Of a stretch of 42,427 nucleotides of DNA, positions 13,437-38,900 are shown piece after piece. Origin of the DNA: an uncultured Myxococcales bacterium (GTDB lineage: Bacteria; Myxococcota; Kuafuiibacteriia; Kuafuiibacteriales; Kuafuiibacteriaceae); contig CAZFIV010000059.1 of the NCBI GenBank assembly GCA_964519665.1, positions 1-42,427 of the forward strand. The letters are read 5' to 3'. How positions within the stretch are numbered: the stretch's first letter is position 1; every line of letters begins with the position of its first letter. Under the pieces are notes generated by a model. The model worked only from the letters and a program-made list of their open reading frames with translations. It was not told where the DNA came from and searched no databases. A program made the position numbers and the translations under genes.

Positions 13437-13442
13437 CGCCCT

Positions 13443-15059: not shown

Positions 15060-15688
15060 GCGGCGTGGGTTCGGCGGGGGTCGTCATCTCGATGCTCATG
15101 GCGACCGGGGCGCCCTCTATTATGGAAGCGGGCGACAGCAGTGACGTCCGGCGCCGCACTCTGGAAGATACCTTCGTGGCCTTTCGAGCAATGGACGAGG
15201 CGTCACGAACTCGAATCTTCAACTATATTTATAGAATCGAGCGAGATAAGTGCCAGGCGCCGCTGAGAAGCCTGAAGGTGGGCTGCCTGCTCGAGGCGGC
15301 GCGCCGAAACTGCCGACGGCGCGGGGTCCATCAGCGAAAAGAGTGTCGCCGGGTCTCGGATGTCATCGTCGCCAATCGGCTGAGCGAGCCGAGGTTTCTG
15401 ACCCGTTCCGACCGCTACCAAATTATGAAAGAAAGCGACAACTATCGCGACGGGCTGTCGGCGGAGCTTCGCCGACGCTATGCGCGTTTGGTGACCGGGC
15501 TGTACCTCAAAGTGCCGGTGCCTGCCGACGCGGCGCCCGAAACCTTGGCCGCGGCCGTAGACGGATACTGTCTCGACATTGCGGGGCAACGCAGCCGACT
15601 GTCGTGGACGCACTGCGCCGCCGCGGTGGTCTGGTTTATCGGTACGAGCCCGAGCGAAGCGTCGGTTGACAAGGCGGTGGGGCCATGA
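15056..15688 (+). CDS. hypothetical Cys-rich protein
   Basis: 210 aa with 4-nt overlaps at both ends (ATGA coupling). No recognisable domain. Confidence 0.45.
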   Translation: MSGVGSAGVVISMLMATGAPSIMEAGDSSDVRRRTLEDTFVAFRAMDEASRTRIFNYIYRIERDKCQAPLRSLKVGCLLEAARRNCRRRGVHQRKECRRVSDVIVANRLSEPRFLTRSDRYQIMKESDNYRDGLSAELRRRYARLVTGLYLKVPVPADAAPETLAAAVDGYCLDIAGQRSRLSWTHCAAAVVWFIGTSPSEASVDKAVGP

Positions 15689-23349: not shown

Positions 23350-23886
23350 CTACTGACCAGGCTCCAGCGGTCGGCGGAGCAGGCGGCGAAGCGCCATGGC
23401 CTTACGCGCGACCGGGTCGGACAGATCGCGACTGACCCGGACGGCCGCATCGAGGTCAGCGGTGGCTTGGGCGATGTCTCGGCGCGCGATGTGAACTTCG
23501 GCGCGGTTGACATAACCGGCAGCGGACCGCGGAGCGACCGTGATGGCGTGGGTGAACTGGCGGATCGCCCGCTCTGCATCGCCCTGGCGATGATAGACCA
23601 CCCCGAGCGCTCGGTAGTAGTAGTCGTTGCGGGGGTCGATCGCGACCAGCCCCTCGAAGATGATCTGAGCGTCTCGGACCTTGCCGTTCAAAAACAGCGT
23701 GTATCCATGCTGAGAGATCGCGTAGAGCTCTTCCGGCTCGTAGCCCTTGATCTCTTGCAGGGTGGCCTCTCCGTGGGCCCATCGACGAACCGCGGCTCCC
23801 GGAGCTCGCTCGAGCTCCTTATCGAGGTTGCGTTCTCGACGGATCAGCTGATTCTCGCTGACCTTGGCGAGGGGGCTATCCGACAC
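23350..23886 (-). CDS. TPR-repeat class II type III secretion chaperone (LcrH/SycD/CesD family-like)
   Basis: 178 aa. Residues 40-150 align colinearly with LcrH/SycD (LEQLYSLAFNQYQSGKYEDAHKVFQALCVLDHYDSRFFLGLGACRQAMGQYDLAIHSYSYG vs EELYAISQHGYTLFLNGKVRDAQIIFEGLVAIDPRNDYYYRALGVVYHRQGDAERAIRQFTHA). The size and three TPRs are typical of translocator chaperones. Confidence 0.7.
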   Translation of the reverse strand: MSDSPLAKVSENQLIRRERNLDKELERAPGAAVRRWAHGEATLQEIKGYEPEELYAISQHGYTLFLNGKVRDAQIIFEGLVAIDPRNDYYYRALGVVYHRQGDAERAIRQFTHAITVAPRSAAGYVNRAEVHIARRDIAQATADLDAAVRVSRDLSDPVARKAMALRRLLRRPLEPGQ

Positions 23887-23897
23887 GGCTCAACCCT

Positions 23898-24362
23898 TCA
23901 CCCCTTCGATTCGGCCAGGAGACGGGCGTAGACCTGCTCGGCCATGCCGTTGTAGCGGTCGAGGAGGCGGAGCATCGCGTCTTCTCGCCGCAACATGGCC
24001 TTCATCTGGTCGCGCCGAGTGCCCGGCAGCTCGTTGAGGTCTTCGGATTCGACCGCGTCGTCGAAGAGGGACCAGCTCCGACGCTTTCGCTTCATCAGAA
24101 CCCGACGGAAGATCACGTGGATGAGATCGAGGTCCATCAGCTCGACCGGGTCTGGGTCGAACGGAGCGGGCTCCCCCATACGCAGGTTGTCGCTGGAGCG
24201 CTTGGGGTCGAGCAGCCGGGCGGGGGCGGCGGCCGGCATCGGTGAGGCGTCGGGGTTCTTCTCGAGCTTGGTCCGGACCTTGACCTCCTCCGGATACGTG
24301 CCGACGAGGCCGACGTTCGTGGGCCACGGCCACTTTTGCTTGATATCCGCCACGGGCTCCAA
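23898..24362 (-). CDS. hypothetical protein immediately upstream of the T3SS chaperone (candidate T3SS substrate or regulator)
   Basis: 154-aa ORF whose stop lies 11 nt before the chaperone start. It is charged and Pro-rich at the N-terminus with no recognisable domain. Confidence 0.45.
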   Translation of the reverse strand: MEPVADIKQKWPWPTNVGLVGTYPEEVKVRTKLEKNPDASPMPAAAPARLLDPKRSSDNLRMGEPAPFDPDPVELMDLDLIHVIFRRVLMKRKRRSWSLFDDAVESEDLNELPGTRRDQMKAMLRREDAMLRLLDRYNGMAEQVYARLLAESKG

Positions 24363-24507: not shown

Positions 24508-24705
24508 CAACGAGCGAAGTCGGGTGGGCGCGATTCACTCGCGCCCGGGCCCCGCTGGCAAGCGTCGCGCGCAGCGAGCAGAGCGAGCGAAGTCGGGTGG
24601 GCGCGATTCATTCGCGCCCGGGCCCCGCTGGCACGCGTCGCGCGCAGCGAGCGGAGCGAGCGAAGTCGGGTGGGCGCGATTCATTCGCGCCCGGGCCCCG
24701 CTGGC
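24508..24705. repeat. 73-bp tandem repeat, about 2.7 copies, each containing a perfect GC hairpin (gggcgcga-ttca(t/c)t-cgcgccc); REP-like intergenic element
   Basis: Direct repeats start at 24512, 24585 and 24658 with a period of 73. The copies differ at 2-3 positions and the third copy is truncated. The same 45-bp core occurs at 3219..3268. Track ORFs beginning MNRAHPTSL... are translations of this repeat and are not genes. Confidence 0.85.
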
Positions 24706-25901
24706 TTCCGACGGAGGAGGTTCGACCGGGGCTCCGGCGAAGCGCTCGAGGGTGCCGGGGGCACCGGCGCGTGGGGCCCCATTCGGGCTCGGCGCATGTC
24801 TTCGCGCTGCTCGGCCCGCTGGTCGGCCTCCTGTCTCCGACGGTTCTCTTGCTCTTCTCGAATCTTGTAGACGAACGAAAGCACCTCGGCGACCGCCTCG
24901 TAGAGCTCCTCCGGGATTTCTTCGTCGATGTCGAGCTTGTTGAGTGCCTGTGCCAGGGGCACGTTTCGCAAGATGGGCACGCCGTAGTGTTTGGCGAGCT
25001 CTTTGATCTTCTCGGCGTGCACCCGCATACCCTTGGCCACGACTTTGGGCGCCTGGTCGCGGTCGCCGTCGTACTTGATGGCGACCGCGATGTGAGCGGG
25101 GTTCACGACGACGGCGTCCGCGTTCTTCACGTTTTCTTGGCCTCCACCGAAGAGTAGCTCGTGGGCGAGTTGCTTTCGCTGCCCCTTCATCTGAGGGTCA
25201 CCTTCGGATTGCTTGTACTCCTGTTTGACGTCGTACTTCGACATCATCTGCTCTTTGAAGAACTGTCGACGGCTCCAGATGAGGTCGATGACGCCGATGA
25301 AGATGAACAGCGCGGTCGTTTTGAGCAGGTACTCCCACACCAACCCGCCGCCATAGTCGACGGATTGGTCGATGGGTAGAGTGACCGACAACGTCATGTC
25401 GTAGACCGCGTTCTTCATGATGTCGTACGCAAGCCATCCTGCGGCCGCCATCTTCACCATGTTTTTGATGAGCTCGACGAACTTCTTGATCTTGAAGAGA
25501 CCCTTCAGGCCGTTGACCGGATTGACCTTGTCGAGTTTGGGCACCAGGACCTTGAACGCCATGAAGAAGCCGGTCTGCATGACGTTGCTGAAGATGCCGA
25601 TCACGAACACGGCCGCGCCGACCGGCAGCGAGACTTTGAGCACCAGCGGGATCGCCTCCTGCATGAGCTTGGCGATCGTGGCTTCGCTGGGCTCGCGGCT
25701 GGCGGCGTCGATCGCCGCGCGGGCGAAGTCTTCGACTTCGCCGAAAACAAAGGTGATGAGGGCGACCAGGCACACAAAGCCAAACGCGAAGCCGAGCGCG
25801 CCGACGAAATCCTGGCTCTTGGGCACCTGCCCCTCTTCCTTGGCTTTGCGGAGTTTTTCGGGGGTTGCCTCTTCGGTCTTCTCCCCGGTTTCGCCGGACA
25901 C
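24681..25901 (-). CDS. sctU: type III secretion export apparatus switch protein SctU (FlhB/YscU family)
   Basis: 406 aa with 4 N-terminal TM helices and the conserved autocleavage site VVNPAHIAVAIKY (NPTH-type). The C-terminal domain is colinear with YscU/FlhB (EEIPEELYEAVAEVLSFVY). The last 8 codons and the stop fall inside the third repeat copy. Confidence 0.9.
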   Translation of the reverse strand: MSGETGEKTEEATPEKLRKAKEEGQVPKSQDFVGALGFAFGFVCLVALITFVFGEVEDFARAAIDAASREPSEATIAKLMQEAIPLVLKVSLPVGAAVFVIGIFSNVMQTGFFMAFKVLVPKLDKVNPVNGLKGLFKIKKFVELIKNMVKMAAAGWLAYDIMKNAVYDMTLSVTLPIDQSVDYGGGLVWEYLLKTTALFIFIGVIDLIWSRRQFFKEQMMSKYDVKQEYKQSEGDPQMKGQRKQLAHELLFGGGQENVKNADAVVVNPAHIAVAIKYDGDRDQAPKVVAKGMRVHAEKIKELAKHYGVPILRNVPLAQALNKLDIDEEIPEELYEAVAEVLSFVYKIREEQENRRRQEADQRAEQREDMRRARMGPHAPVPPAPSSASPEPRSNLLRRKPAGPGRE

Positions 25902-25978
25902 GCCGAAGATCTTACACGAACCCGGCCCGTCCGTCTTCGCCCGTGGGCCCCGCGCGGGTGGCCGGCGACCCGGTCCGG

Positions 25979-27853
25979 TCAGCTCGCGGCGGGTAAGATA
26001 TCGCTCGGTGCGTGAACGTCGTCGGCGTCGACGAAGCCCAGGGCCTGCACGTCGTGAAGTCGCCGGTAGTGGCCGTTCGGGTCGGCGATCAGCTGATCGT
26101 GAGTGCCTTGTTCGACGATCCGCCCGTGATCGAACACCAAAATGCGGTCGACCTTGCGGACCGTCGATAGCCGGTGGGCGATCAGAAAAGCGGTTCGGTC
26201 TCGTAGAGCTTCCTCGACCGCTCGCTGGATGAGGTGTTCGGTCTCCGAGTCGAGGCTCGACGTGGCCTCGTCCAAGATGAGAAACGGGGCGTCGGCCAGG
26301 ATGGCGCGGGCGATCGCCACTCGTTGCCGTTCTCCGCCCGAAAGCTTGATGCCGCGCTCGCCGACCAGCGTATCGTACCCCTGGGGGAGTCGGCTGATGA
26401 AGTCGTGCGCGCGAGCCCGCCGGGCCGCCGCCTCGATCGCTTCCTGGGAAGCGTCAGGCGAACCGTAGGCGATGTTCTCGGCCAACGACCGGTGAAACAA
26501 GATCGGTTCCTGCGGAACGATGGCGAAGGCTCGGCGGACCGACGACTGCTGAACCTCGCTAATATCTTGCCCATCCACGACGATGCGCCCACCGTCGACG
26601 TCGTACAGGCGTTGCACGAGCTTCACGAAGGTGGTCTTCCCGGCCCCCGACGGACCGACCAGAGCCACCTTTTCGCCGGGCCGGATGTCGACGGTCAGGC
26701 CGTCGAATACCGGATCCGACTGCTTGGGGTACTTGAAGCGCACGTTCTCGAACCGGACCGCGCCTTCGCCGGGCCTGAGGGCCGGCGCGTTGGGGCGGTC
26801 GGCCACCTGGGGCGGCGTTTCGGAGATCTTGACGAGGTCGGACAGCTCGTCGACCGACCGCTGAAGCTCCCGGATCTGCCAGCCGACATTGCGGAGAGAC
26901 CCGTTCACCACGAAATACGCGGTCAACACGTAGACGAGCTCATCCACCTGAGTGCCGGGCCCGGACGCCTGGCGAAACACGATACCGATCAGTCCTCCGA
27001 GCAAGGCCACCAGCATGACGGACTGGACCGCTCCGGCGTCGGTACTCCGACGCCACGCGTAGCGAGAGCGGTTGCGCCAGCGCTGGGTGACACCTTGCAT
27101 CCGTCGGTCTTCGCGGTCTTCGGCGCCGAACCCTTTGACCACCGGGTTGCAGGTGATCGCGTCGGCGAGGGCGGCCCCCATCTCGGTATCGGCCTCGTTC
27201 GACCGCTCGTTCGCGGGGGCGACATACGACATCGACAACAGGGCGCTGACCAGCAGAAAGACGGTGACCCCAGCGCCGAAATAGAGGCCGAGCCACGGAT
27301 CTCGCCGGGTCATCTCGACCGTGAATCCGAAGAGCAGCGCCAACGCCGGGCCCAGATTGATGATGATCATGTCGGCGAAGTTGTCGTAGGCCCACATGCC
27401 GCGAGTGATCTTTCGGACCGTGGCGCCGGCGAAGTGGTTCGCGTGCCAGTCGGCACCGAATCTCTGTACGTGGGCGAACCCGTCGTTCACCACCCGTCGC
27501 ATGACGTCGGCGGTAAAATGAAGGTAGAGGCGGACGTAGAGCTGCTGCATCACCGATACGAGGGCGATGGTCACGAGCAAGAGCAAGGCTGCCGTCAGCG
27601 CGGCATCAAACTCGGCGGCGTAGCTTTGTGCGCCGACCGAAGCCTCGTCGGGACTGACGTTCGGGCGGCCGTCGGCCCAGCTCCGGAGCGCGGTGACCAG
27701 TTCCGATGCTCGGGTCGGGACTTGAACCTCGGCCGCCACGGCCAGGCACAGTCCGGCCAAGACCCCAGCGAACTGGAGCCAGCTGACGAGCCAATATCGA
27801 CCTACGAAACGGAGAACGCCCACGAACGTGCGCGTGGTTATCGTTTCGGTCAC
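25979..27853 (-). CDS. ABC transporter, fused permease/ATP-binding protein (MsbA-like type I exporter)
   Basis: 624 aa with an N-terminal 6-TM domain, Walker A GPSGAGKTT, signature LSGGERQRVAIARAIL and Walker B FLILDEATS. About 80-bp gaps separate it from sctT and sctU on the same strand. Confidence 0.9.
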   Translation of the reverse strand: MTETITTRTFVGVLRFVGRYWLVSWLQFAGVLAGLCLAVAAEVQVPTRASELVTALRSWADGRPNVSPDEASVGAQSYAAEFDAALTAALLLLVTIALVSVMQQLYVRLYLHFTADVMRRVVNDGFAHVQRFGADWHANHFAGATVRKITRGMWAYDNFADMIIINLGPALALLFGFTVEMTRRDPWLGLYFGAGVTVFLLVSALLSMSYVAPANERSNEADTEMGAALADAITCNPVVKGFGAEDREDRRMQGVTQRWRNRSRYAWRRSTDAGAVQSVMLVALLGGLIGIVFRQASGPGTQVDELVYVLTAYFVVNGSLRNVGWQIRELQRSVDELSDLVKISETPPQVADRPNAPALRPGEGAVRFENVRFKYPKQSDPVFDGLTVDIRPGEKVALVGPSGAGKTTFVKLVQRLYDVDGGRIVVDGQDISEVQQSSVRRAFAIVPQEPILFHRSLAENIAYGSPDASQEAIEAAARRARAHDFISRLPQGYDTLVGERGIKLSGGERQRVAIARAILADAPFLILDEATSSLDSETEHLIQRAVEEALRDRTAFLIAHRLSTVRKVDRILVFDHGRIVEQGTHDQLIADPNGHYRRLHDVQALGFVDADDVHAPSDILPAAS

Positions 27854-27933
27854 GAATACCCCCTTTTTGAAGTCCGGCTGCTATATACCCGAACTTTGAG
27901 GGTGGCGATGACCTAGCCCACGGTCACCGAAAA

Positions 27934-28758
27934 TCAGCCCAACAAACGGACGAGCCGTTTCAGGAACATCAGATTCTCCTCGAGGCGGCCGGCCAGCTGC
28001 TGGGTCATCAGGATCAGCGCGAACATGAACATCACCAGGCCGGCCATCGCCTTCACCCCCATCGCCATGAAGTACGCGTTCAGCTGAGGCGCGATGCGGT
28101 TGAACATGCCGAACACGACATCGACCAAGAAAGAAGCGAAGAGCCCCGGGAAAACGAGCGCGAACGCAAGACCGAACAAACTGTTGGTATAGCTGAGCAC
28201 CTGGTCGATGAAAGTGTCGAAGCCGGCCGCGAAGGCCGGAAAGCGGTCGATGCTGACCACTTGGTAGCTGTCGATGACGCTCTCGATGAAGATGCCATGG
28301 CCGTTGAGGGCGCAGAACACGACCAAGAGGAGCTGAAAGTTGAACTGACCGACGGGCGAGGCACGCAGCTGGATCTCCGGCACCTGGACCTCGGCCATGT
28401 TCGAGCCGCGCATGACGTCGAGGGCGCGACCGCCGATCTCCATGGCGTAGAAAATCTCGGACGCGATAAAGCCGATCACGAAACCGATGAACACCTCTTT
28501 CATCATTAAAATGATGTAGGCGACCCAATTTGCATCGAGTGGGTCCTTCATCGCGTCCTGCGCGTACGGAAAGACCAGGATGGCGAGGCCCACGCTCAGG
28601 CCGATCCGGGTTTCGGTGGGCACCAGCCGCCCCCCCATAAAAGGGGTTTGAAAGATGATCGGAACGATGCGCATCAGCACGAGCGAGAACATGAGCAGGA
28701 AGTCCGACAGGTTGCCCCGCAGACCCACCGCTTCGTAAATCGATTGCCAGCCGCCCAT
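27934..28758 (-). CDS. sctT: type III secretion export apparatus protein SctT (FliR/YscT family)
   Basis: 274-aa polytopic membrane protein whose layout and length match the FliR family, located in the sctRST block. Confidence 0.8.
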   Translation of the reverse strand: MGGWQSIYEAVGLRGNLSDFLLMFSLVLMRIVPIIFQTPFMGGRLVPTETRIGLSVGLAILVFPYAQDAMKDPLDANWVAYIILMMKEVFIGFVIGFIASEIFYAMEIGGRALDVMRGSNMAEVQVPEIQLRASPVGQFNFQLLLVVFCALNGHGIFIESVIDSYQVVSIDRFPAFAAGFDTFIDQVLSYTNSLFGLAFALVFPGLFASFLVDVVFGMFNRIAPQLNAYFMAMGVKAMAGLVMFMFALILMTQQLAGRLEENLMFLKRLVRLLG

Positions 28759-28819
28759 ACTTGTTCGGTTCCGATGCCGTCGTCGAGCGCTCCCGTGGTT
28801 TGGCTCGCAGGGCCGCCCG

Positions 28820-29092
28820 TTAGTTGCCGATGACGGTGGCGAAACCTTCGAAGCAGATCTTTCCGAAGGTCGCCATAGTGTGGCCCAGACTCGGGCCTAA
28901 GATCGCCAGCGTTCCGAACACCACGATGACCTTGGGAACGAAGGTGAGCGACTGTTCCTGCACCTGAGTCACGGCCTGGAACAAGGCGATCAGGAGACCG
29001 ACGAGCAGACTGAACACCACGGGCGGCCCGGAGATGACGAGCGTGAGCAAGATACCCTCGTTGGCAACCTGGAGAATAAAGTCTTCGACCAT
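28820..29092 (-). CDS. sctS: type III secretion export apparatus protein SctS (FliQ/YscS family)
   Basis: 90 aa with two TM helices and the conserved LIALFQAVTQVQEQSLTFVPKV motif. The start overlaps the sctR stop (TGATG). Confidence 0.9.
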   Translation of the reverse strand: MVEDFILQVANEGILLTLVISGPPVVFSLLVGLLIALFQAVTQVQEQSLTFVPKVIVVFGTLAILGPSLGHTMATFGKICFEGFATVIGN

Positions 29093-30132
29093 CAGATGTA
29101 CCCCGTGATCAGGCCCTTGGTGATCAGATACCAGCCGTCGATCATCACGAACAGCAGCAGCTTGAACGGTAGAGAAATCGTCGTTGGGGAGAGCATCTGC
29201 ATACCGAGGGCCATCAGGATGTTCGACACGATCATGTCGATGACCAGGAACGGCACGAAGATGATGAACCCGATCTGAAACGCTTCTTTCAGCTCCGAGA
29301 TAACGAACGACGGGATGAGCACCATGAAGTCCTCCGGACCCACCCCCGCTCGGTCTTCGGGCTTGCGCAGTCGCTTGGCCATGCTGAAGAACATCGCCTG
29401 ATCTTTGTCGTGACTGTTCTTCCTCAGGAACGCTTTGAGCGGGGGGCCGCCCTCCCCGATCGCTTCGAACAACAGGTCGACGGTCTGTGTCGATACCAGT
29501 GAGCCCTCGGGTTGCCGTTTGTTGATGATCTGTTCGGTGGCGTTGTAGATCTCGATGCCCACCGGGGCCATGATGTAGACGGTCAATACGATCGACAGGC
29601 CGGTGATGACCTGGGTCGGCGGAATCTGCTGAGTGCCGATCGCCGAGCGCACGATCGACAAGACCACCGATATCTTCACGAAGCTCGTGACCATGATGAT
29701 CACGAACGGGAGCAGGGTGAGCAGCGCGAGCGCTCCGAGGAGGACCAGCGGTCGGGCGGCGACCGACCCTTTGAGCTGAAGGTCGGAGGGCTTCAGCTTC
29801 GCTTTGCGCCGGCTCGAGCTTTGGGCCGCGGCGTCATCGGGGGCGGAGAGCGTCGCCCCGCCGACGCCGACCGCGGCCGCCAGCATCAGCGCCGAGACCC
29901 ATCGCGGCCGGCGCTCGAGTGCCGGCCGCGATGCCGGAAGGTCGTCGCGAGGCGCGAGGGCAACGCTATCGGGGCCCTGAGGCGGCGAGGACGGCGACGG
30001 ATGGCGATATGCCGTCGCCGCGGACCGCTTCGGCGCTGTTCGGCGCTCGAGGCTGGCCTTACGGCGTCGTTCTCGTCGCGGGGGCGGACGGGACGGCGCG
30101 AGCCAAGCTGGCCATCTAGCGATAGCGACCAT
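29092..30132 (-). CDS. sctR: type III secretion export apparatus protein SctR (FliP/YscR family), with Pro/Arg-rich N-terminal extension or later true start
   Basis: The C-terminal ~250 aa are FliP-like (LLPFVIIMVTSFVKISVVLSIVRSAIG, GLSIVLTVYIMAPV, MQMLSPTTISLPFKLLLFV). The first ~82 aa are Pro/Arg-rich; the alternative start Met83 (29886) precedes a signal-like segment. The ATG at 30132 is 3 nt from the fliO-like stop. Confidence 0.85.
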   Translation of the reverse strand: MVAIARWPAWLAPSRPPPRRERRRKASLERRTAPKRSAATAYRHPSPSSPPQGPDSVALAPRDDLPASRPALERRPRWVSALMLAAAVGVGGATLSAPDDAAAQSSSRRKAKLKPSDLQLKGSVAARPLVLLGALALLTLLPFVIIMVTSFVKISVVLSIVRSAIGTQQIPPTQVITGLSIVLTVYIMAPVGIEIYNATEQIINKRQPEGSLVSTQTVDLLFEAIGEGGPPLKAFLRKNSHDKDQAMFFSMAKRLRKPEDRAGVGPEDFMVLIPSFVISELKEAFQIGFIIFVPFLVIDMIVSNILMALGMQMLSPTTISLPFKLLLFVMIDGWYLITKGLITGYI

Positions 30133-30135
30133 CTC

Positions 30136-30828
30136 TCAGTTCCCTTTCGCTTTACGGCGGAACAGGTCGTTCAGCCGGCTGAATCCGGGGCTGGGGATCT
30201 CCGTTTCGGCAAGCAGACGCTCGACCCGATCACTATCGAGCTTGGACATCATCGATATGTTCTGCTCGGCCGCGCCCACGAGATAGTACTCGTCGCCGAG
30301 CTTGAGGACCATGATCGAGCGCTTTTGATCGATGGCCAACCGGTCCACCACTTTCAGCAGACGGCGGGGTGCGGTGGGCGGTTCGATCCTCATGAGGCGG
30401 GGCAGCAGCTTGCCCAGCAGAAGATAGGCCAGCAAGCTGACCGCGGTCAGCATGATCACCGTACGGACGAACGTTGGCCAGAGGCTGGTTTCGCCCGAAT
30501 CGTCGCTGAGGGCGTCTTGCTCGGCCTGGAGCCGCTCGAGCCGAGCGGCTTCCTCAGCCAGGCGCTTGGCTTCGGCCGGATCTTGGCGGGACGGGGTATC
30601 GGCGCCGGCGGTCGAGGTCGAGCTCGACGCTTGGGCGGTGGTCGCCGTCGCGGTGCCCGAGCCGCCGGCCGACTCGGGCGCTGGCTGCCCGAACCCATCG
30701 CGCGGGCCGCTGACGGCGGCCACCACCATCACCAGGGCGATCCACTGGCGGCCGGACCGTCGCCCACTCGTTCCTCGCAGGGGGGCCGCTGGCGGCCGCA
30801 AGGGGGTTTGCGTCGGGCCGAGCCTCAT
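30136..30828 (-). CDS. FliO-like small membrane protein with Ala/Pro/Ser-rich N-terminal region
   Basis: The C-terminal ~110 aa comprise a single TM helix plus LKVVDRLAIDQKRSIMVLKLGDEYYLVGAAEQNISMMSKL. This matches the FliO core (LKISASASLGARERVVVVDVEDARLVLGVTAGQINLLHKL). The gene overlaps the sctQ stop by 4 nt. Confidence 0.65.
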   Translation of the reverse strand: MRLGPTQTPLRPPAAPLRGTSGRRSGRQWIALVMVVAAVSGPRDGFGQPAPESAGGSGTATATTAQASSSTSTAGADTPSRQDPAEAKRLAEEAARLERLQAEQDALSDDSGETSLWPTFVRTVIMLTAVSLLAYLLLGKLLPRLMRIEPPTAPRRLLKVVDRLAIDQKRSIMVLKLGDEYYLVGAAEQNISMMSKLDSDRVERLLAETEIPSPGFSRLNDLFRRKAKGN

Positions 30829-32429
30829 GGAGAAGGCGCCTTTACGAGGCTGAGGATCTTGACGCCGAGCGAGCCTTCGATCTCGACCAGCTCTCCCTTC
30901 GCTAGCAGCCGGCCATTGACCACGAGGTCGACCGGCTCGGCCGGCGAACGCCCAAGCTCGACAATGTGGCCGGTGCCCAGGCGGATAACCTCGTCGGCGG
31001 TCAACTGAACGCGGCCGAGTTCGACCACCACGTGCACCGGGACATCGCCGAGCAGGGCTTCGGCTTCGACCGGGCCTTCTTCGAAGTGGACCTCTTCCGA
31101 GGGACCGGCCGTTCCTTCTTCGGGATTGTATTCGAGCTCCGGGGCACCCGGCGCGTTAGGGTCGTAGGGCTGTTCGGGGTACTCTTCGGCGTACTCGTCG
31201 TAGTACTCCTCGTCGTCGCCTTCGTTCTCGTCGTCGATGCCGTACTCTTCGTCGAGGATGTCATCGTCGGTCAGATCGCCGTCGTCGTTTTCGTCGTACC
31301 TTGGTTCCTCGTACTCAGCCATGACTTCCTCGGGGTGCCCGTGCATGCCGTGCACGATGTGTGGGTCGTGAACCGGGGGGACCTTGCGCGCCCGCACCTG
31401 CTGGATCTGAAACGCCCGTTGCCGCGCGTCACCAGAACCTTGGCTCCCGACGATGCCGTGAAGGACGACACTCCGACCGAGACCGACCGTCATGCGGGCC
31501 GGCCCGACGGGTTCGCCGTGCTCCAGGCGGAGCTCACAGTGGTCGAGCAGGACGATGTCGCCAGGGTCGAGCGCACGGATGTCTTCGGGGGTCAGCTCGA
31601 TGTGGCCGCCTTCGACCGGGCAGTCGACCATGACGCCCTCGAGACGATCCATCCGGCGGCGCAGGTGTTCGCGGACCCGACCAGCGAGCGGGGACGTCGG
31701 CGGGAGCTGGTCGGGCACCAAGCGGCGGACCAGCGAGGTCGGCACCACGGCGCGCACGTAGCCGACGTCGAGGTCGAAGTTCATCTTCCACGCGGCGACC
31801 AGCCAGAAGTCATCATTGCGGACGATGTCGGCGATCGTCTTGAGGTCGTTTCGAATGTCTTCGAGGCGAACCGCGACCTGCTCCGGAAAGGCCATCTCGT
31901 GCTGAAAAAGGTGGAGGACTTTGAGAAGGAGAAAGGAGAAGACCCCTTGCTCGATCTCGGTCAGCGGTCGGTGGACGTCGACCGCTACCCCGTGGCTCCC
32001 GAGGAGCCGGTCGACGGCGCGGTAGACGAAGCGCAGGTCGACCTCGATAATGACTTTTTCGGCGAGCGGGGGCAGTCCGACGATCACCAAGCAACTGACC
32101 CCGGGGATCATCGCGCGCAGCTGCGTACGGCGCATGACGCGGACCGTGTGCAGCCACAGGTCGACGTCCATGTCGGTGTACTTCTGAAGCTCCTGCCGGA
32201 TCTGGGTCAGGAAGCCGGGTTCGAAGACGGCTTCTGGAAGAACGCGGCTCAGCGCGCGGTGGACGTCGCGATGTTCCCGAGGGATTCGCTCCAGCTCATC
32301 CAATCGGAACGGGCGTACCCGCTTATCGCGCAGGTCGGGGTCGTCCGGCTCGTACGTGCGCGATTGCCGCGTGTAGGCGGCGGCATCGACCACCGAAATC
32401 GGCGGTACAGGGGGCGGTCGGGCGGCCAC
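30825..32429 (-). CDS. sctQ: type III secretion cytoplasmic-ring / sorting-platform protein SctQ (FliM/FliN-like, C-terminal SpoA domain) with acidic low-complexity insert
   Basis: 534 aa. The C-terminal SpoA/FliN motif is VPVHVVVELGRVQLTADEVIRLGTGHIVELGRSPAEPVDLVVNGRLLAKGELVEIEGSLGVKI. An Asp/Glu/Tyr-rich insert of about 85 aa spans residues ~370-455. Confidence 0.85.
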   Translation of the reverse strand: MAARPPPVPPISVVDAAAYTRQSRTYEPDDPDLRDKRVRPFRLDELERIPREHRDVHRALSRVLPEAVFEPGFLTQIRQELQKYTDMDVDLWLHTVRVMRRTQLRAMIPGVSCLVIVGLPPLAEKVIIEVDLRFVYRAVDRLLGSHGVAVDVHRPLTEIEQGVFSFLLLKVLHLFQHEMAFPEQVAVRLEDIRNDLKTIADIVRNDDFWLVAAWKMNFDLDVGYVRAVVPTSLVRRLVPDQLPPTSPLAGRVREHLRRRMDRLEGVMVDCPVEGGHIELTPEDIRALDPGDIVLLDHCELRLEHGEPVGPARMTVGLGRSVVLHGIVGSQGSGDARQRAFQIQQVRARKVPPVHDPHIVHGMHGHPEEVMAEYEEPRYDENDDGDLTDDDILDEEYGIDDENEGDDEEYYDEYAEEYPEQPYDPNAPGAPELEYNPEEGTAGPSEEVHFEEGPVEAEALLGDVPVHVVVELGRVQLTADEVIRLGTGHIVELGRSPAEPVDLVVNGRLLAKGELVEIEGSLGVKILSLVKAPSP

Positions 32430-32513: not shown

Positions 32514-33269
32514 ATGTTCATTTTTCGTTTGCTTCGAGCGGCCGGATTTCAGCGATTGCTCGGCTTCGTGTCGCCGGCGTTCTTCGATGTGGTCCCGGCC
32601 GGAGCGATGTTGGCGCGCGGGCGGACCCTATTGGCCGCGTACAGGGATGCCCGAGCCTTTGAGAAGGCCCGGGACGAGAGGTCGAAGCGATTGTCGGCGG
32701 CCGGCCTCGAGGTCGAGTTGGCCGCCGCGCCGACCCCGAGCGGCCCGGCGGATGAGTTCCCGCTCGAACAACGGCGATCGGTCGGTGAAGCGGTGCTCCG
32801 CCTGTACTTTCACCAGCTGCTGACGGACGGGCCGACGCTGCTCGATCTGAGCGCGGCGAAGTTTCGAGGGAGCCACCCCGTTCAGTGGTCACCGGGGCCC
32901 GGGCATGTCGAATGGGACCCAGCCTTTCAGTCCGCGCTGCGGCAGATCTACGTGGGCTTCTACACCGATGACGGCGCCGTGATGGTGGCCGGCTTGTCCG
33001 AACTCGGCCTCGAGTCGGCCGAGCCTCTGTTTCGCAAGCACTTTGGAGAGGGCGACCAGTCGGCGGTCACGTTTTCGGTCGACCATTTCGTTTCGTCGTT
33101 TCACGCGGTGTTCACCCACTGCAAAGAGCAGGGGATTCGGCTGCACCCCGATTTTCTTCCTCTCGGTGTATATCTGGCGTCTTTGTATGAGCACCTGCAG
33201 GGGATAGGGGCGCCGTTGGATGTGCGGTCGGCGTTCGTCGCCGCCGACCGCACGTCGGGCCGGCATTGA
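32514..33269 (+). CDS. hypothetical protein (opposite strand, between sctQ and the SPFH gene)
   Basis: 251-aa ORF with strongly GC-biased third positions over its distal two-thirds. The first ~30 codons are AT-rich, so the true start is probably internal (for example Met at 32607). No recognisable domain. Confidence 0.45.
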   Translation: MFIFRLLRAAGFQRLLGFVSPAFFDVVPAGAMLARGRTLLAAYRDARAFEKARDERSKRLSAAGLEVELAAAPTPSGPADEFPLEQRRSVGEAVLRLYFHQLLTDGPTLLDLSAAKFRGSHPVQWSPGPGHVEWDPAFQSALRQIYVGFYTDDGAVMVAGLSELGLESAEPLFRKHFGEGDQSAVTFSVDHFVSSFHAVFTHCKEQGIRLHPDFLPLGVYLASLYEHLQGIGAPLDVRSAFVAADRTSGRH

Positions 33270-33294
33270 CACGGCACTTCCCACGGGGAGCCGG

Positions 33295-34395
33295 TCATTC
33301 ATCCGTCGACTTCAGGGTCGCCCGGGCGAACATCCGCTCCATGAGGTCGCCGGCCCCGGCAATCAGGGTGACCTGATCCAGCGACTGCGCGATCTCTTTG
33401 ATGGCCTCCATCTCCTTGAGGCGCAGCAAGACCGGGTTGGCTTCCAGCATCTTGGCCGTGTTGGCCTGAGAGCGGGTGGCCGCCGTCTCCTCGCGACGCA
33501 TGATGACCTGAGCCGCGGCCTGTTTCTCGGCCTCGATGACCCGGTTCATCAGCGCCTTCATGTCGCCGGGGAGGACGACGTCCTTGATGTCGACGGCGAT
33601 GACTTCGACGCCCCACTTTTGTGCCCGGGCGCCGACTTCAGCGGTCATGCCCGCTCCGATCGCCTTTCGACCCTCGAGCAGCGCATCCAGGGCGTGGCCG
33701 GCGACCGCCCGCCGGACACACATCTGGGTTTCCGAGTACAGGCCGTCGGCGAGCTGGTCGACGCTGTGAAGGGCCCGCACGGGGTCGACGATCCGGTACT
33801 TCAGGATGATGTTCATGCGCAGCGACACCTTGTCGCTGGTCATGACTTCCTGGGCATTGATGGTCCGCTCGGTCTCCCGCGTATCGACGTTGACCAGGTC
33901 CAGGTCTCGGTCGAGCTTCGAGAGCAGGGCGCGACCTCCGTTGATCGTGCCGGCGAGCTTGCCGTCTTCGTACACCAGCAGCTGCTGGTAGGGCTTCACA
34001 GTAACCACCTCTACGAGGTCGCGCGGGATCCACGGCCAGATCGCTTCGGGGATCGCGGGTCGCAGCGGCCCCAGGTCGTACAGGTCGGCCGCGACCTCCC
34101 CCCGCAGCTGCCACAGCATGTAGCGGCCGGGGCGCAGGATGGCCTTCACCAGACCATCGACGTAGGTCACCGCGACCTCCGATGCGCCGACCATCAGCTC
34201 GGTCCAGGCGATACCAGGGGCGACCTTCGCCAGCTCCGGGCGAAACGGTACGCTGGCCTGGCCGACGTCGATCAGCTCTGCGCGCAACTCGTCCAGCCAT
34301 GACCAGCGAGTGTGCTTGCCGGGTTCCAGCCACTCCACGAGCCGTCCGTTTCGGTACAGAAGACCGCGGTGGGTCTCCGGGACGATCAGTTTCAT
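33295..34395 (-). CDS. SPFH/band-7 (stomatin/slipin-like) domain protein
   Basis: The SPFH domain is VSLRMNIILKYRIVDPVRALHSV...GVEVIAVDIKDVVLPGDMKALMNRVIEAEKQAAAQVIMRREETAA. The track ORF runs to 34596, but the Met at 34395 is preceded by AAGGAGG with a 5-nt spacer, and the upstream 67 codons are Arg/Pro-rich. Confidence 0.8.
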   Translation of the reverse strand: MKLIVPETHRGLLYRNGRLVEWLEPGKHTRWSWLDELRAELIDVGQASVPFRPELAKVAPGIAWTELMVGASEVAVTYVDGLVKAILRPGRYMLWQLRGEVAADLYDLGPLRPAIPEAIWPWIPRDLVEVVTVKPYQQLLVYEDGKLAGTINGGRALLSKLDRDLDLVNVDTRETERTINAQEVMTSDKVSLRMNIILKYRIVDPVRALHSVDQLADGLYSETQMCVRRAVAGHALDALLEGRKAIGAGMTAEVGARAQKWGVEVIAVDIKDVVLPGDMKALMNRVIEAEKQAAAQVIMRREETAATRSQANTAKMLEANPVLLRLKEMEAIKEIAQSLDQVTLIAGAGDLMERMFARATLKSTDE

Positions 34396-34649
34396 GCGGG
34401 CCTCCTTCGTGCGTTGAGGGGTTGCTGAACGGGGGGCGCCCGGGGGCGCACTCCAGGGCGAACGCGGCGGCCCGCCGACGGTCGACGTCGGCGGGCGGCG
34501 TTGCGTTCGGCGACTCGAGGCGCGCATGGCGGCGGTCGCTCCGAAGAGTCGACTCCGGCCGGACGCCGCCCCGCAGCAGGTTAGAGGTTGTTTCAAGGAT
34601 ACGTCGTCAGATTAAAAGTCTGATGCCTTTACCGTTTTGGCCAATCACC

Positions 34650-34954: not shown

Positions 34955-35851
34955 CTACGCGACCGTCAGGTTCTTCAGCTTGAGTCCTCGACCGGCGAGG
35001 CCTTTCGCCAGGAGCTCGCGGCCGGCCTCGACGAGGGCGGTCATTTCTCGGTCGCACCCGTGAAAGGTGCACTCGACCTGTCCGCCCTCGGACCTGACCT
35101 CGAGCTTGACCCCGTCGAGAGGTCCACCCCGGAGGTGGATCTGCATTTGGGTTCGTCCGTCGGTCCCGACCGTCTTCAGGACGGCGTTCACCAGCTGCTG
35201 GATGAGGGCGGGGGGGATGTCGACACGGTGAGCCTTCGGGGACTCATCCACTGCGGACGCCTTCTCAGGACCAGCGCCATCGTCGCCGCTCGACGATGAG
35301 TGCTGCTGACGTTGACGTCGCTCTCCGTCAGGATTGATCGGGCCGTCACTCTGGGCCTCGGCGGCGACCTCGGTCTGCTTCTCTTCGACCGACCGCAAGT
35401 CTTTTGTATCTTGGTCGCGGCCGTGCTCCCGAGCGTGTTCGAGCTCTTCGGCCCCTCGACCATCGAGCTGCTCGGCGCGGGCTTCGGCTTCGACGGCGCC
35501 GGCTCGGTGACCTTTGGCGCGCCCTCGAAGGGCGCTTCCGGCCACCGATCTCGACAGCTCGGCCTTCTTCGCCAAGTCGGCGTGAGCCCGTTGACCCTGG
35601 GTGCGAACCTGGGCGAGCAGGCGCTGGCTTGCGGCATCTCCGGGCGTCGTTCGCGTGGTGGCCGCGGTTTGGCGTTGCGCTTGCTGGGCCACCCGCTCAC
35701 GCCCATGCTCGGCCATGACCTCTTTGAACGAGCGTTCGACCCGGCTCTGATGGTTTCGTTGGGCCTGGTCCGCCCGGCGGCGGAGCTCGGCTTGATTGAC
35801 CTCACGAATACGCTGAAGGTCGCTGTTGTCGCCGTCACCGATGCCTGACAT
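34955..35851 (-). CDS. FliK/SctP-like protein (coiled-coil Gln/Arg/Glu-rich N-terminus, C-terminal hook/needle-length-control-like domain)
   Basis: The C-terminus (KTVGTDGRTQMQIHLRGGPLDGVKLEVRSEGGQVECTFHGCDREMTALVEAGRELLAKGLAGRGLKLKNLTV) matches the FliK C-terminal/T3S4 pattern (L.P..LG.v.v.l....g.l.v.f.a.....r..l......L...L...G..l..v.v). The likely start at 35851 is preceded by GGAGAG; the track ORF runs to 35899. Confidence 0.55.
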   Translation of the reverse strand: MSGIGDGDNSDLQRIREVNQAELRRRADQAQRNHQSRVERSFKEVMAEHGRERVAQQAQRQTAATTRTTPGDAASQRLLAQVRTQGQRAHADLAKKAELSRSVAGSALRGRAKGHRAGAVEAEARAEQLDGRGAEELEHAREHGRDQDTKDLRSVEEKQTEVAAEAQSDGPINPDGERRQRQQHSSSSGDDGAGPEKASAVDESPKAHRVDIPPALIQQLVNAVLKTVGTDGRTQMQIHLRGGPLDGVKLEVRSEGGQVECTFHGCDREMTALVEAGRELLAKGLAGRGLKLKNLTVA

Positions 35852-35947
35852 CTGCTCTCCAAGATAACGTGGTCGGACACATCCCGACCGATCGCACACA
35901 GTTATCGGAGCACAGCCGAACGTGTTGCGTCGAGACTCGATGGTTCT

Positions 35948-38900
35948 CTAGAGGTCTCGAGCGCAGCGAAATCCGACTCGGAGGTCGTCGGTACCCACCA
36001 CGCGGGTGTTTTCATAGGCGATGTACCAGTGCTGCCGATCCGGCGGCGACAGCCAGTCTCCGCCCCGTACGATACGAACCTGAGGACTGCCGGCAGTCGA
36101 CGTCGAGGTCCACTCGGAAACGTTGCCGGCCAGTTGCAGAATGCCGTAAGGACTCGCGCCGGCCTCGAAGGCGGTCACCGGGGCGGTCGTTTCATACCCG
36201 TCGATCTCGAGTGAGATGTTCAGCGGCGGCGGAATCAAGATCGACCCCCATGGAAGGTTGCGCGTGGGCATGGGGTTCGCCAGCTTTCGCTGCTCATCCA
36301 AGTAGATACCTCCCCGCGCCGCCTTCTCCCACTCTAGCGACGTCGGTAGGCGCTTGCCATGAAATCGGCAGAACGCCTCGGCCGTGTGGTAGCCCACGAG
36401 AACAGCCGGATGCTCGGGCAGACCGAGGATTTCGGAATCCGGAATGCTCTTCGGGTAGATCGTCGCATTCATTCCGGTCAGTCTGCTCATTCGCGTGAAG
36501 TGCCCGAGCGCCTGATTGCTGACTTCGTACCGGTCCATGGCGAAGGCCGGCAGGTCGACGATTTTTTCGGGCTCCACGTAGCTCGGAAATCGGGTCTTCG
36601 GTATCCCGGCGCCGCCGCTGATGAACTCTCCGGCGGGAACCTGCGCCATGTTGGCCAAGCTTGCGGCGCAGGTGGGTATCCACACTTCGATGACGGTGTC
36701 GCGGTATCGTTCCGCATAACCGGGCGCGCGCTGGAGACGCAGCTCGGAAGGCCCGCATTCGGCCTTCCGCCCGCGACCGATGACGAGCAAGAACAGCGAG
36801 CCGCCCCGGACCTCGACCGAATATCGAACGGAGTCCGACGAGCCCGACGGTAGGCGCTGTGACCTCACGTAGTTTTCCTCGATTGGAGCGCCGCGTTCGA
36901 GTATGTCCCCGAGGGCGATATCATGGAGTCGCCACGACAGGTCGGGCAGCTCACTCACGTTGGCGGGTCGTGGTTCGCCGGTCGCGGGGTCGATGTCGAA
37001 CGGATGCAAGACCAAGTCGAAGCGCCCGAGGTTCGCGGCGGCCTGGTTGATCTGCTCGGCCTGACTTCGAAACACCACCGCGGCGGCACCAGCGACAATC
37101 GCGAACAGTGCGGTGGCGGCGAACGTCACCGTCCAGAACAGACGCTCGCGTGCCTTCTGTTTGTGCGCTCGGTAGCGTCCGAGCTTCAAGAAGCGGTCGA
37201 TGTGTGGTGGCGGGCGAATGCCCAAGCTCTCGAAGCGATCGAGGGTGCGCTCGACCGTGGGACCATCCCACGTCTCCTGGATGAGGGCGCCGCGTCGAAG
37301 CCACGGCTGGACGGTCTCTTCGAGTTCCTGAAGGAGTTGCCGCTCTTCCCGGGTTTCGTCGGTCCACCTCGCGAGCTGGGTCCACGATCGGATCAGTGCC
37401 TCGTGAACCAGCTCGTAGGTGGCACCGCCTTCGTCACGGCCGGGGCGAAGCTGAGCGGTCACCAGTCGGCCTTCCACCAGTTTTTCGAGGGCGTCGGAGC
37501 CGCCCGGGAGGTCGGTGACCAGCGCGTCCGAGGTTCGAATGAGCCTCGTGCCCTCCGGACCCACCAACCGAAGCAGGATGGTCTTGGCGGCTTCGAACTG
37601 CGATGGATTCATCGACGCCATCAACTGGTCGGCGCGCCGAGCGAGCGCGCCTTGTACGCCGCCGAGCGCTGCGTAGGCTTCCTCGGAGATCGTTCGGGTC
37701 GCTTCGTTTCGCTCTTTCCAAAGCTCGGCGCAGGTGAACTGAAGCAAGGGAAGCGGCGACGCCGCGTCTTTGACTTCATCGACCATTCTCTGCGCCAGGT
37801 CACGCGGGGAGAGCTGATATCCGATCGCGGCGAGCGGGGCGGTCACACATCGAACGAGCATGTCCGTGCTCGGGCTGACGAGAACCACGAGCTCTTGAAC
37901 CAGAGTTGCTGCGCCGGGAAGAGCGGCCAGACGGCCCAGGAAGTCGTCGCGGAGGGTCATGACCACCCGTATGCTGTCATCGGGACCGTCGAAGGCCCCG
38001 CCGAGCGCCTTCAGGAATGCGGCCGCCTGGTCGAGGTCTTCGACGTTGGTGATCAGTTCCTCGGCCTGGTCGACGAAGACCAGAATGTTGGTGTCTCCCT
38101 CCTCGGCGCGGTCGTGCAACTTCAGGTTCAACAGCGCCGGTCGCTCGGTCAACCGCGCCGCAAACGAGTCGACGGACTCGGTGTCGCGGGACGACCTCGA
38201 AGCCTCGCCCATGAGTTGCGCGGCGAGCGCGCGCATCGGGCGAGCGCCCGGTCGAATACGGAGGAACTGCCACCGACCGGTATGGGCGAGCCGAGGAAGA
38301 ACCGCCGCTTGCACGAACGAGCTCTTCCCCGTGCCCGAGGCTCCAACGACCGTGATCGCCGCCTGCGTTCGAAGAAGCCGCAAGAAACGGTCCGATTCTT
38401 CCTCGCGTCCCACGAAAAAGCGGGCATGACGCTGATCGAAGGCCTCGAGACCCCGGAACGGAGGGATCTCGAGATCTTCAGCGGGGACCGAAACGGCGTA
38501 CAGCCTCTCCAGGGTGTGGGCGATTTCGTCGGCGGTCGGGCGCTCCTGCGGTGTTCCTCGCAAACATGACGCGACCAGGAAGCCGAGAGGCCCGACGGAT
38601 GTGCTGGGCGGCGGGAGCTCCCCTTCTTCCAGCCCTGGCGGTAAGGGTGGCCCTTCCCGCTTCCGCCGGGGCAGGTCGCCTTCGAGCATCTCGTACAGGA
38701 TGAGCCCCAAGGCCCAGACATCTACAGCTCCGGATAGCTCCAAGCCTCGCCATTGTTCGGGCGCCATGTAGGCCGGTGTGCCGCTCCAGCTGCGCCCGGG
38801 AGCGACGTTGACGGTACTGAAGGCCCGGGCAAGCCCGAAATCGACCACCCGAGGCCGTCCGTCCTCGGGAACCAAGACGTTGGCGGGCTTGAGGTCACAG

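Follow-up and report, generated by a model that had tools for sequence, protein, structure and literature searches.

We analysed a 42,427-bp stretch of DNA from an uncultured Myxococcales bacterium (contig CAZFIV010000059.1, a complete contig of a metagenome-assembled genome (MAG), GC content about 65%; hereafter the window), in which a gene for an ATP-binding cassette (ABC) exporter lies between sctT and sctU of a cluster of type III secretion system (T3SS) genes. Judged by gene content and phylogeny, the region encodes the cytoplasmic ring and the export gate of a non-flagellar T3SS of the Myxococcota type. The ABC gene within it is probably a passenger, that is, a native half-transporter gene with its own promoter-like element, which sits at an older, variable boundary of the cluster and has probably kept its ancestral function.

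The cluster consists of seven open reading frames (ORFs), all on the minus strand (24681-32429), in the order sctQ, fliO-like, sctR, sctS, sctT, ABC and sctU, and the Pfam hits of these core genes were well above gathering scores. SctQ (30825-32429) is a cytoplasmic-ring/sorting-platform protein with a FliM-like N-terminal domain (Pfam FliM, 57 bits, residues 73-237), an acidic linker and a C-terminal SPOA (FliN-like) domain (FliMN_C, 82 bits, residues 460-529). It scored 98.8 bits against TIGR02551 (SpaO_YscQ), narrowly under the cutoff of 100.8, and was 76-77% identical to its counterparts in the related loci L082, L083 and L087. It is followed by the genes for a FliO-like assembly factor (30136-30828; Pfam FliO, 45 bits against a cutoff of 22), SctR of the FliP family (29092-30132; FliP, 233 bits), SctS (28820-29092; Bac_export_3, 88 bits; 87-93% identity in close relatives), SctT (27934-28758; Bac_export_1, 167 bits), the 624-aa ABC half-transporter (25979-27853; ABC_membrane and ABC_tran) and SctU of the FlhB/YscU family (24681-25901; Bac_export_2, 360 bits; 86-90% identity to the closest relatives). 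All four core gate proteins SctRSTU are therefore present, each above its Pfam gathering score. The gap from the sctT stop to the GTG start of the ABC gene is 80 nt and contains an AAGGGGG Shine-Dalgarno sequence, and the gap from the ABC stop to the sctU GTG is 77 nt; the gene order and flanking gaps of about 80 bp that the earlier note had read from the sequence were confirmed. The N-terminal ~125 residues of SctR are Arg/Pro-rich, and its real start may lie downstream of the annotated one. SctU carries a predicted autocleavage-type motif, NPAH, at residues 267-270, of which N, P and H were invariant in 16 family members; its AlphaFold2 (AF2) model was mediocre (pLDDT 64).

The ABC protein combines a six-transmembrane ABC_membrane domain with a nucleotide-binding domain (NBD), as in ABCB-type half-transporters with the type IV ABC exporter fold. 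All motifs were intact (Walker A GPSGAGKT, LSGGE, Walker B FLILDE, SSLD and the H-loop HR560), and the protein is presumably a homodimeric ATP-driven exporter. It matched the structures of ABCB1, Atm1 and MsbA over the full length, with NaAtm1 (4mrn, 294 bits) and MsbA (283 bits) as its best solved half-transporter relatives. It stayed under every named NCBIfam equivalog cutoff, including those of the MsbA models TIGR02203 (353 bits, cutoff 602), NF008381 (281, cutoff 867) and TIGR02204 MsbA_rel (363, cutoff 780). The description as MsbA-like, under which the gene was first noticed, is loose, with 353 bits against the MsbA cutoff of 602 and NaAtm1 as an equally good structural relative. The scores on the type I secretion models TIGR01846 (310 bits, cutoff 726) and TIGR01842 (197, cutoff 510) were also low. 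No HlyD or OEP genes were found beside the ABC gene in the window or the relatives examined and Pfam detected no C39 peptidase domain in its product; with neither this domain nor an adjacent membrane fusion protein or TolC, it is not a type I secretion ABC protein. Homologues with 55-65% identity are found in MAGs of Myxococcota and Pseudomonadales and make up a large unnamed ABCB family; an exact-sequence look-up of the protein gave no match.

The distribution of the arrangement was determined by scanning one genome per species with an SctU alignment and taking the best 80 loci. The closest 51 of these were all from uncultured Myxococcota or 'Deltaproteobacteria' MAGs, followed by Bacillota flagellar FlhB and chlamydial SctU at 35-40% identity, and cultured Myxococcus contributed none of the 80. 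By tblastn, none of these 80 species-representative loci had an orthologue of the ABC gene within 10 kb of sctU, the nearest outgroups (SctU 77-82% identical) included. The ABC gene adjoins sctU in six contigs, namely the window and five contigs of one ENA metagenome outside the species-representative set (L081, L082, L083, L087 and L103). The order Q-O-R-S-T-ABC-U is kept in L082, L083, L087 and L103, while in L081 the pair ABC-U lies behind unrelated genes and sctQ-T is no longer upstream. Since five further independent contigs carry the ABC gene directly upstream of sctU, the arrangement is no assembly artefact. Pairwise identities among the embedded loci were 70-76% for the ABC protein and 84-96% for SctU, and because the embedded ABC proteins are only 70-76% identical, the insertion is older than a strain event. 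It is confined to one shallow, genus-level clade. The earlier note had named a strain-specific gene, a recent insertion, as counting against its reading, and this holds by half: six divergent contigs speak against a single-strain event, yet the gene is absent from 80/80 of the other best relatives and stays within one clade.

In a neighbour-joining (NJ) tree of ABC proteins, the seven T3SS-embedded proteins were monophyletic, with P0128 and P0132 as successive sisters. The gene of P0128 lies on the same 6.05-Mb contig as the sctU of its genome (75% identical), 3.2 Mb apart from it, next to genes for a hydrolase and an extracytoplasmic function (ECF) sigma factor, and the sctT|sctU slot of the same genome holds pdxJ on the opposite strand. 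P0132 is found in a housekeeping, non-T3SS context, and no recurring operon partner of the unlinked ABC gene was seen in these two contexts. Because both sisters lie in unlinked, non-T3SS contexts, the embedded ABC gene is a native Myxococcota gene, which would have been relocated or duplicated. The distances of the embedded proteins to the outgroups were equal to or smaller than those of P0128, indicating no rate acceleration. The GC content at third codon positions (GC3) of the ABC gene was 0.816, like that of the neighbouring genes, and its codon bias was native. Horizontal acquisition was considered and rejected, given the native GC3 and the nearest relatives, which are Myxococcota genes tracking host relationships.

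The junction that received the gene is variable throughout the family. The genes sctT and sctU are contiguous in L005, L010, L012 and L022, and many other loci have 1-4.3 kb of other DNA between them. The slot holds pdxJ on the opposite strand in L088; in L032, L003 and L051 it is occupied by a gene for an NHL-repeat protein or by other ORFs. When the junction ORFs were compared all against all, a conserved gene emerged, m1 (~320-346 aa), which lies just upstream of sctU and on the opposite strand. It is present in ~30 Myxococcota loci from both major subclades (for example L004:8925-9962, L009:8186-9223, L100:8084-9085 and L031:7635-8597, all on the minus strand, and ~25 more loci); it is absent from the window. 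A second conserved gene, m2 (~260-300 aa), often stands beside m1. In many family loci sctU is unlinked to sctRST. On the other side of sctU in the window follow a conserved 151-aa gene (23898-24353, minus strand) and a gene for an LcrH/SycD-like tetratricopeptide repeat (TPR) class-II chaperone (23350-23886, minus strand; TIGR02552, 84 bits with a cutoff of 104.8, and several TPR Pfam hits; 90-92% identity in close relatives). The 151-aa protein has 68 homologues (52-84% identity), all from the same Myxococcota lineages, and always follows SctU and precedes the LcrH-like chaperone. Since the junction is variable and sctU often unlinked, sctU, the 151-aa gene and the LcrH-like gene would form a unit of their own, and T|U would be an old operon boundary. 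The contiguity of R-S-T-U, which the earlier note had taken as the rule, thus does not apply to this family, in which T|U is variable and often holds the divergent gene m1.

The 206-aa frame first read after sctU did not stand: it was dropped as a wrong-frame artefact of the high GC content, the real ORF being the 151-aa gene. The AF2 model of the 151-aa protein had low confidence (pLDDT 59); in it the N-terminal half is disordered and the C-terminal part forms a long helix. The protein may be a substrate of the T3SS or a minor structural component. Profile searches of the m1 and 151-aa families against Pfam and PDB gave nothing credible. Both m1 and m2 are candidate T3SS components or regulators, and all three proteins are candidates for new components or substrates. 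To understand a T3SS that lacks needle and secretin, they offer better starting points than the ABC gene. As a separate observation, in some relatives the slot is taken by large genes on the same strand (L032:5709-7982(+), L040 at the same position, and L003:7053-8981(+)). One product is a 758-aa NHL-repeat protein, and another is a 643-aa protein that weakly matches a matrixin-like zinc protease; such large proteins could be secreted cargo.

Alignment of orthologous upstream regions revealed two conserved boxes. The first, a promoter/operator-like box before the ABC gene (27882-27921, minus strand), reads GTGGGCTAGGTCATCGCC-N16-GTATATA and is followed by the Shine-Dalgarno sequence. Its family form is GTGGCGTAGGTCATCGCC-N16-20-GTATATA, 35-45 nt upstream of the ABC start codon, and it is kept in the window, L081 (8040-8080), L082 (7333-7372), L083 (6361-6400) and L087 (9928-9969), with a variant in L103 (5-6 of the six contigs). 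The box was found nowhere else in the 1.65 Mb searched, nor upstream of the unlinked orthologues, and no T3SS gene shares it. It persists in L081, whose upstream gene is not sctT; because it is conserved even where the upstream gene differs, the box points to a promoter or operator belonging to the ABC gene itself. The second box, TGCTAAAC / T(A/G)GCTT-like, precedes the sctU GTG by 7-12 nt in most of the family, independently of the gene further upstream (L001, L003, L004, L007-L009, L013, L081, L082, L087, L088 and L103); the window has TAAGAT there (25902-25925, minus strand). It suggests an sctU-specific promoter with a leaderless or very-short-leader transcript. A consensus promoter and terminator scan of both gaps gave nothing significant, with site counts equal to those of shuffles.

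Taken together, the following course of events would account for the arrangement. The sctT|sctU junction would be an old variable boundary, with sctU heading a unit with the 151-aa gene and the LcrH-like chaperone gene. In the ancestor of the genus-level clade of the window, a native Myxococcota ABCB half-transporter gene would have entered the sctT|sctU slot by relocation or duplication, carrying along its own promoter-like element, with m1 now missing. Most likely, the ABC protein still performs its ancestral function, independent of the T3SS, and its gene would be one of several unrelated genes spreading the cluster apart, beside the SPFH, EamA and APH genes and a ~19-kb block in the window and S8 peptidase and LysR genes in relatives. 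We infer that the ABC gene is transcribed independently, that its ancestral function is retained and that events ran in this direction. Because the insertion belongs to one shallow clade, is of native origin, has its own box and shows no rate acceleration, the ABC gene does not define an atypical T3SS. The suggestion that the embedded transporter marks such a system is not upheld, with the gene absent from 80/80 relatives, native in origin and evolving at an unaccelerated rate.

Several observations weigh against this explanation. The T-ABC-U or ABC-U linkage outlasted a radiation with 24-30% divergence of the ABC protein, and in L081 the ABC gene still adjoins sctU after sctQ-T left, which also fits selection for linkage. 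The promoter-like elements are sequence motifs only. There is no convincing terminator on either side of the ABC gene and, because of this, the co-orientation and the short gaps, read-through may co-express it with the T3SS genes. Duplication and relocation of the ABC gene are both possible courses.

Some of these observations favour the alternative that the ABC protein was recruited as a working accessory of a needle-less, secretin-less T3SS, its adjacency to sctU being selected for co-expression. Its exported substrate might be a lipid, a peptide or a small molecule that the apparatus requires to cross an envelope or to attack prey. The linkage is kept in six divergent contigs, the adjacency to sctU was retained in L081 after that to sctT was lost, the genes share a strand, the gaps between them are short and terminators are not evident, and the ABC gene is intact and under constraint. 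We nevertheless consider recruitment unlikely, since the gene is absent from 80/80 of the best other family loci, among them the nearest outgroups with 77-82% SctU identity, the orthologues in sister genomes are unlinked to the T3SS, the ABC protein shows no rate acceleration and its box is shared with no T3SS gene. Moreover, the same junction holds unrelated genes elsewhere, and the cluster of this clade has gathered many obviously unrelated insertions. If true, cooperation of the ABC protein and the T3SS would be a new kind of secretion-system hybrid and the first of its sort; the evidence points the other way. Quite unlikely, too, is a more far-reaching view, by which either the ABC exporter was captured, in this one uncultured clade, into the transcriptional surroundings of sctU and works with a ring-less, needle-less T3SS, for example by exporting a lipid or peptide with whose help T3SS substrates cross or attack an envelope, or the family is a minimal T3SS variant distinct from the Myxococcus xanthus systems. 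The marks of such a variant would be a 14-gene core (L-N-O-P-Q-FliO-R-S-T-U-x-chaperone-chaperone-V) with m1, m2 and the 151-aa protein.

The passenger explanation agrees with the dispersal of the whole cluster in this clade. Upstream of sctQ in the window, an SPFH/Band-7 gene (33295-34596, minus strand; Pfam Band_7, 110 bits) and a 251-aa gene (32514-33269, plus strand) form a clade-specific insertion (32514-34596) that separates sctQ from a gene for a FliK/SctP-like protein (34955-35899, minus strand; C-terminal Pfam Flg_hook domain, 27.9 bits, just under the cutoff of 29.8). FliK-like orthologues are found directly upstream of sctQ in L004, L008, L010 and L012. The SPFH and 251-aa pair is also present in L083 and the Band_7 gene in L087; both are absent in L101 and L089. 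At the other end of the window, Pfam identified an APH kinase gene (61-1095, minus strand), 67-72% identical to its orthologues in L082, L083, L087 and L103, and an EamA transporter gene (2257-3144, minus strand), 46-50% identical to those in the same four loci. In these loci the APH and EamA genes lie between the LcrH-like gene and sctV, with sctV 2-3 genes further, and the interval also holds S8 peptidase, LysR and other genes. In the window, EamA/APH are separated from the LcrH-like gene by an insertion of ~19 kb of unrelated genes (3273-23281; oxidoreductase, Lon-like, MotAB-like, aminotransferase, ABC1-kinase and PPK2). Because the APH and EamA markers precede sctV in the relatives, sctV is expected just beyond coordinate 1 of the window, and on this synteny it should lie just past the left contig end.

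This scattering might be read as a decaying, non-functional T3SS remnant, in which the ABC gene merely marks the erosion of a dead operon. The cluster is fragmented, with sctL/N/O not upstream of the fliK-like gene of the window, sctV outside it, and SPFH, ABC, EamA and APH genes and the ~19-kb block interspersed. Decay is very unlikely, since all six gate proteins have their full length and are completely covered by Pfam domains, the NPxH motif has been kept, and this widespread family retains its synteny across dozens of genomes. Across the clade, and despite the dispersal, identity is 86-93% for SctS, SctU and the LcrH-like protein, where it is only ~71% for the ABC protein, which indicates strong purifying selection; because of this identity, the T3SS appears to be maintained.

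For the kind of T3SS, concatenated SctR, SctS, SctT and SctU sequences (RSTU; 846 columns) were used for an NJ tree with 200 bootstraps and a simple distance correction, to which annotated Ysc, Spa, Rhc and Hrp1 injectisomes and the flagellar sets of E. coli, Bacillota (including Rossellomorea) and UBP8 were added. A Myxococcota clade of 23 loci including the window was recovered with 95% support, the classical injectisomes were monophyletic (100%), and the Myxococcota clade together with Ysc, Spa, Rhc and Hrp1 was split from all flagellar sets (100%). In this tree the lineage is placed as sister to the classical injectisomes, and by gene content it has kept FliO and has no ring, needle or secretin genes nearby. 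Counting against this placement, the tree is an NJ tree with simple distance correction, built on a limited flagellar sample and on no M. xanthus sequences. Two other trees were set aside. The SctU-only NJ tree supported the window clade and the >=60% family with 100% each, and its deep nodes (<=53%) left it silent for or against flagellar affinity; a first concatenated tree, with Bacillota flagella as the sole flagellar group, was uninformative on sisterhood and was replaced by the broader RSTU tree.

The NCBIfam scores were intermediate. SctU scored about equally on the SctU and FlhB models, and SctS and SctT scored slightly higher on the FliQ/FliR models, yet below all cutoffs. SctR passed the SctR cutoffs (NF009438, 250 > 179; TIGR01102, 228 > 208.6) and stayed under the FliP equivalog cutoff (201 < 217); the equivalog cutoffs of fliP, fliQ, fliR and flhB were all missed by the window proteins. 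Neither SctV nor SctN is encoded in the 42.4-kb window, and a Pfam search of its ORFs of at least 150 aa detected neither flagellin, hook, rod or ring domains nor those of needle, secretin, SctV, SctN or SctJ. FlgB/C, FliE/F/G, hook and flagellin domains were found neither in the window nor in the annotated +-10 kb flanks of the relatives, and SctC, SctF, SctJ and SctD neither in the window ORFs nor in the annotated +-10 kb of L081-L083, L087-L089, L101 and L103. In the relatives, SctV is encoded downstream of the LcrH-like gene and, in L101, SctL/N/O upstream. This locus (SctU 63% identical) is the fullest compact relative and reads SctL-SctN-YscO-like-FliK-like-SctQ-FliO-SctR-S-T-U-153aa-LcrH-like-TPR-SctV-alaS, with no SctJ, D, I, F or C near the cluster.

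FliO is frequently part of Myxococcota non-flagellar T3SSs, both M. xanthus systems included (2025 survey, PMC12403147), and the needle-less 'Myxo' T3SS was placed as basal sister to the other non-flagellar T3SSs (Abby & Rocha 2012, PMC3459982). Since FliO has already been published in Myxococcota non-flagellar T3SSs, it is no sign of a flagellar or mixed nature. A flagellar FliM normally consists of a FliM domain followed by a FliN-like C-terminus. The FliM plus FliN-like layout of SctQ is this ordinary flagellar architecture, and therefore no evidence for a non-flagellar system. The conclusion of the earlier note, a non-flagellar system of the myxobacterial type, is supported; its readings of FliO and of the FliM/FliN fusion are not. 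The phylogeny it had proposed for SctU and SctR, run here within the RSTU concatenate, groups the system with the injectisomes to the exclusion of flagella at 100%, in a basal position as in PMC3459982. The needle-less aspect and the absence of flagellin, hook and needle genes from the window agree with the domain searches above, in which genes for ring, needle or secretin turned up neither in the window nor within +-10 kb in the relatives covered. FliO as a flagellar mark, and with it the 'mixed features', falls away as FliO is regular in Myxococcota non-flagellar T3SSs (PMC12403147), and the FliM/FliN fusion of SctQ is no pointer to a non-flagellar system. Of the genes it had proposed to look for in the flanks (sctV, sctN, sctJ and sctC), sctV was found in the clusters of relatives and sctN in that of L101, while the last two were found nowhere within the annotated +-10 kb of the relatives.

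A true flagellar export apparatus (FliM, FliO, FliP, FliQ, FliR and FlhB) with the remaining regulon elsewhere in the genome, for which the FliO and FliK-like genes, the FliM domain of SctQ, the slightly higher FliQ/FliR scores, a distant MotA/MotB-like pair (11980-13436) and the unresolved SctU-only tree might be named, is highly improbable, as the RSTU tree excludes the flagellar sets at 100%, SctR cutoffs and no flagellar equivalog cutoff are reached, the cluster has LcrH-like class-II chaperones and YscO-like and T3SS_SCTL annotations, rod, hook, MS-ring, FliG and flagellin are absent from the window and from +-10 kb of annotated neighbourhood, the scores of the MotAB-like pair lie far under every cutoff, and FliO is known in myxobacterial non-flagellar systems (PMC12403147).

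Other features of the window were also recorded. The MotA/MotB-like pair belongs to a five-gene block (9690-15688, plus strand) encoding a 772-aa protein, a MotA/ExbB-family protein (11980-12834), a MotB-plug and OmpA-like protein (12831-13436), a 538-aa and a 210-aa protein. The pair scored <=50 bits against cutoffs of >=250, far below the flagellar, Tol and Exb cutoffs, and may be a proton-channel motor unit. Directly upstream of the fliK-like gene, where L101-type relatives hold sctL-sctN-sctO, lies a gene (35948-39985, minus strand) for a 1345-aa protein with a Ser/Thr kinase, an nSTAND1 NTPase and an FGE-sulfatase-like domain. A 73-bp tandem repeat (24511-24705; 2.7 copies, 97%, Tandem Repeats Finder (TRF) score 369) overlaps the last sctU codons. 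Each unit contains an 8-bp GC hairpin, GGGCGCGA-ATGAA-TCGCGCCC (RNA fold z = -2.5); the repeat was found neither in the rest of the window nor in any relative, and had no Rfam match. The Rfam search of 23-33 kb as a whole gave no match either.

Among known systems, the closest in kind is the 'Myxo' T3SS of M. xanthus (T3SS*, MXAN_2434-2464, and T3SS(2), MXAN_5643-5654). The likeness lies in the Myxococcota host, the position as sister to the classical injectisomes outside the flagella (PMC3459982), the lack of detectable secretin, needle and translocon genes (in the window and the +-10 kb of relatives) and the FliO homologue in the cluster (PMC12403147). Unlike the present loci, in which neither the window nor the +-10 kb of relatives has any of them, the published M. 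xanthus loci include SctJ and SctI, and the long locus also SctD. The 'Myxo' T3SS was published as restricted to Cystobacterineae, whereas the hosts here are all uncultured MAGs. The published accounts consulted describe no ABC gene, m1 or split sctT|sctU arrangement, and a literature search for ABC genes inside T3SS clusters gave nothing relevant.

With the injectisome virB-type operon (Yersinia yscN-O-P-Q-R-S-T-U and Shigella spa), L101 shares the order L-N-O-P-Q-R-S-T-U, and the family further shares the LcrH/SycD-like TPR chaperone and an SctR that passes the SctR cutoffs. In contrast to Ysc and Spa, the order Q-R is split by FliO, a FliM domain can be recognised in SctQ, the P protein resembles FliK, genes for SctC, F, I, J and D are missing nearby, and most family members have sctU apart from sctT; identity to injectisome SctU reaches only 24-32%. 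The flagellar fliLMNOPQR/flhBA genes are resembled in the FliM-like, FliO, FliP/Q/R and FlhB homologues in flagellar order, while the separate RSTU grouping, the lack of structural genes, the class-II chaperones and the unreached equivalog cutoffs set the system apart from flagella. On a Rossellomorea plasmid (L095, 1025-2912), wecB and a hypothetical gene lie between fliP and fliQ of a true flagellar operon; because of this wecB insertion, interruptions of the P-Q-R-FlhB array also occur outside Myxococcota. The ABC protein shares the 6-TM and NBD architecture and all catalytic motifs with the Atm1/MsbA half-transporters, and differs from the named ABC families in staying under the trusted cutoff of each and in having no recurring operon partner in the two unlinked contexts.

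The apparent oddity of the locus is thus documented operon-boundary turnover, in which the slot at sctU is filled by genes that differ among lineages, and the myxobacterial non-flagellar T3SS is not one rigid operon. A basal, FliO-containing, needle-less T3SS lineage is widespread in uncultured Myxococcota, and relative to the known systems the window holds a myxobacterial-type non-flagellar T3SS gate with a clade-specific change of gene order.

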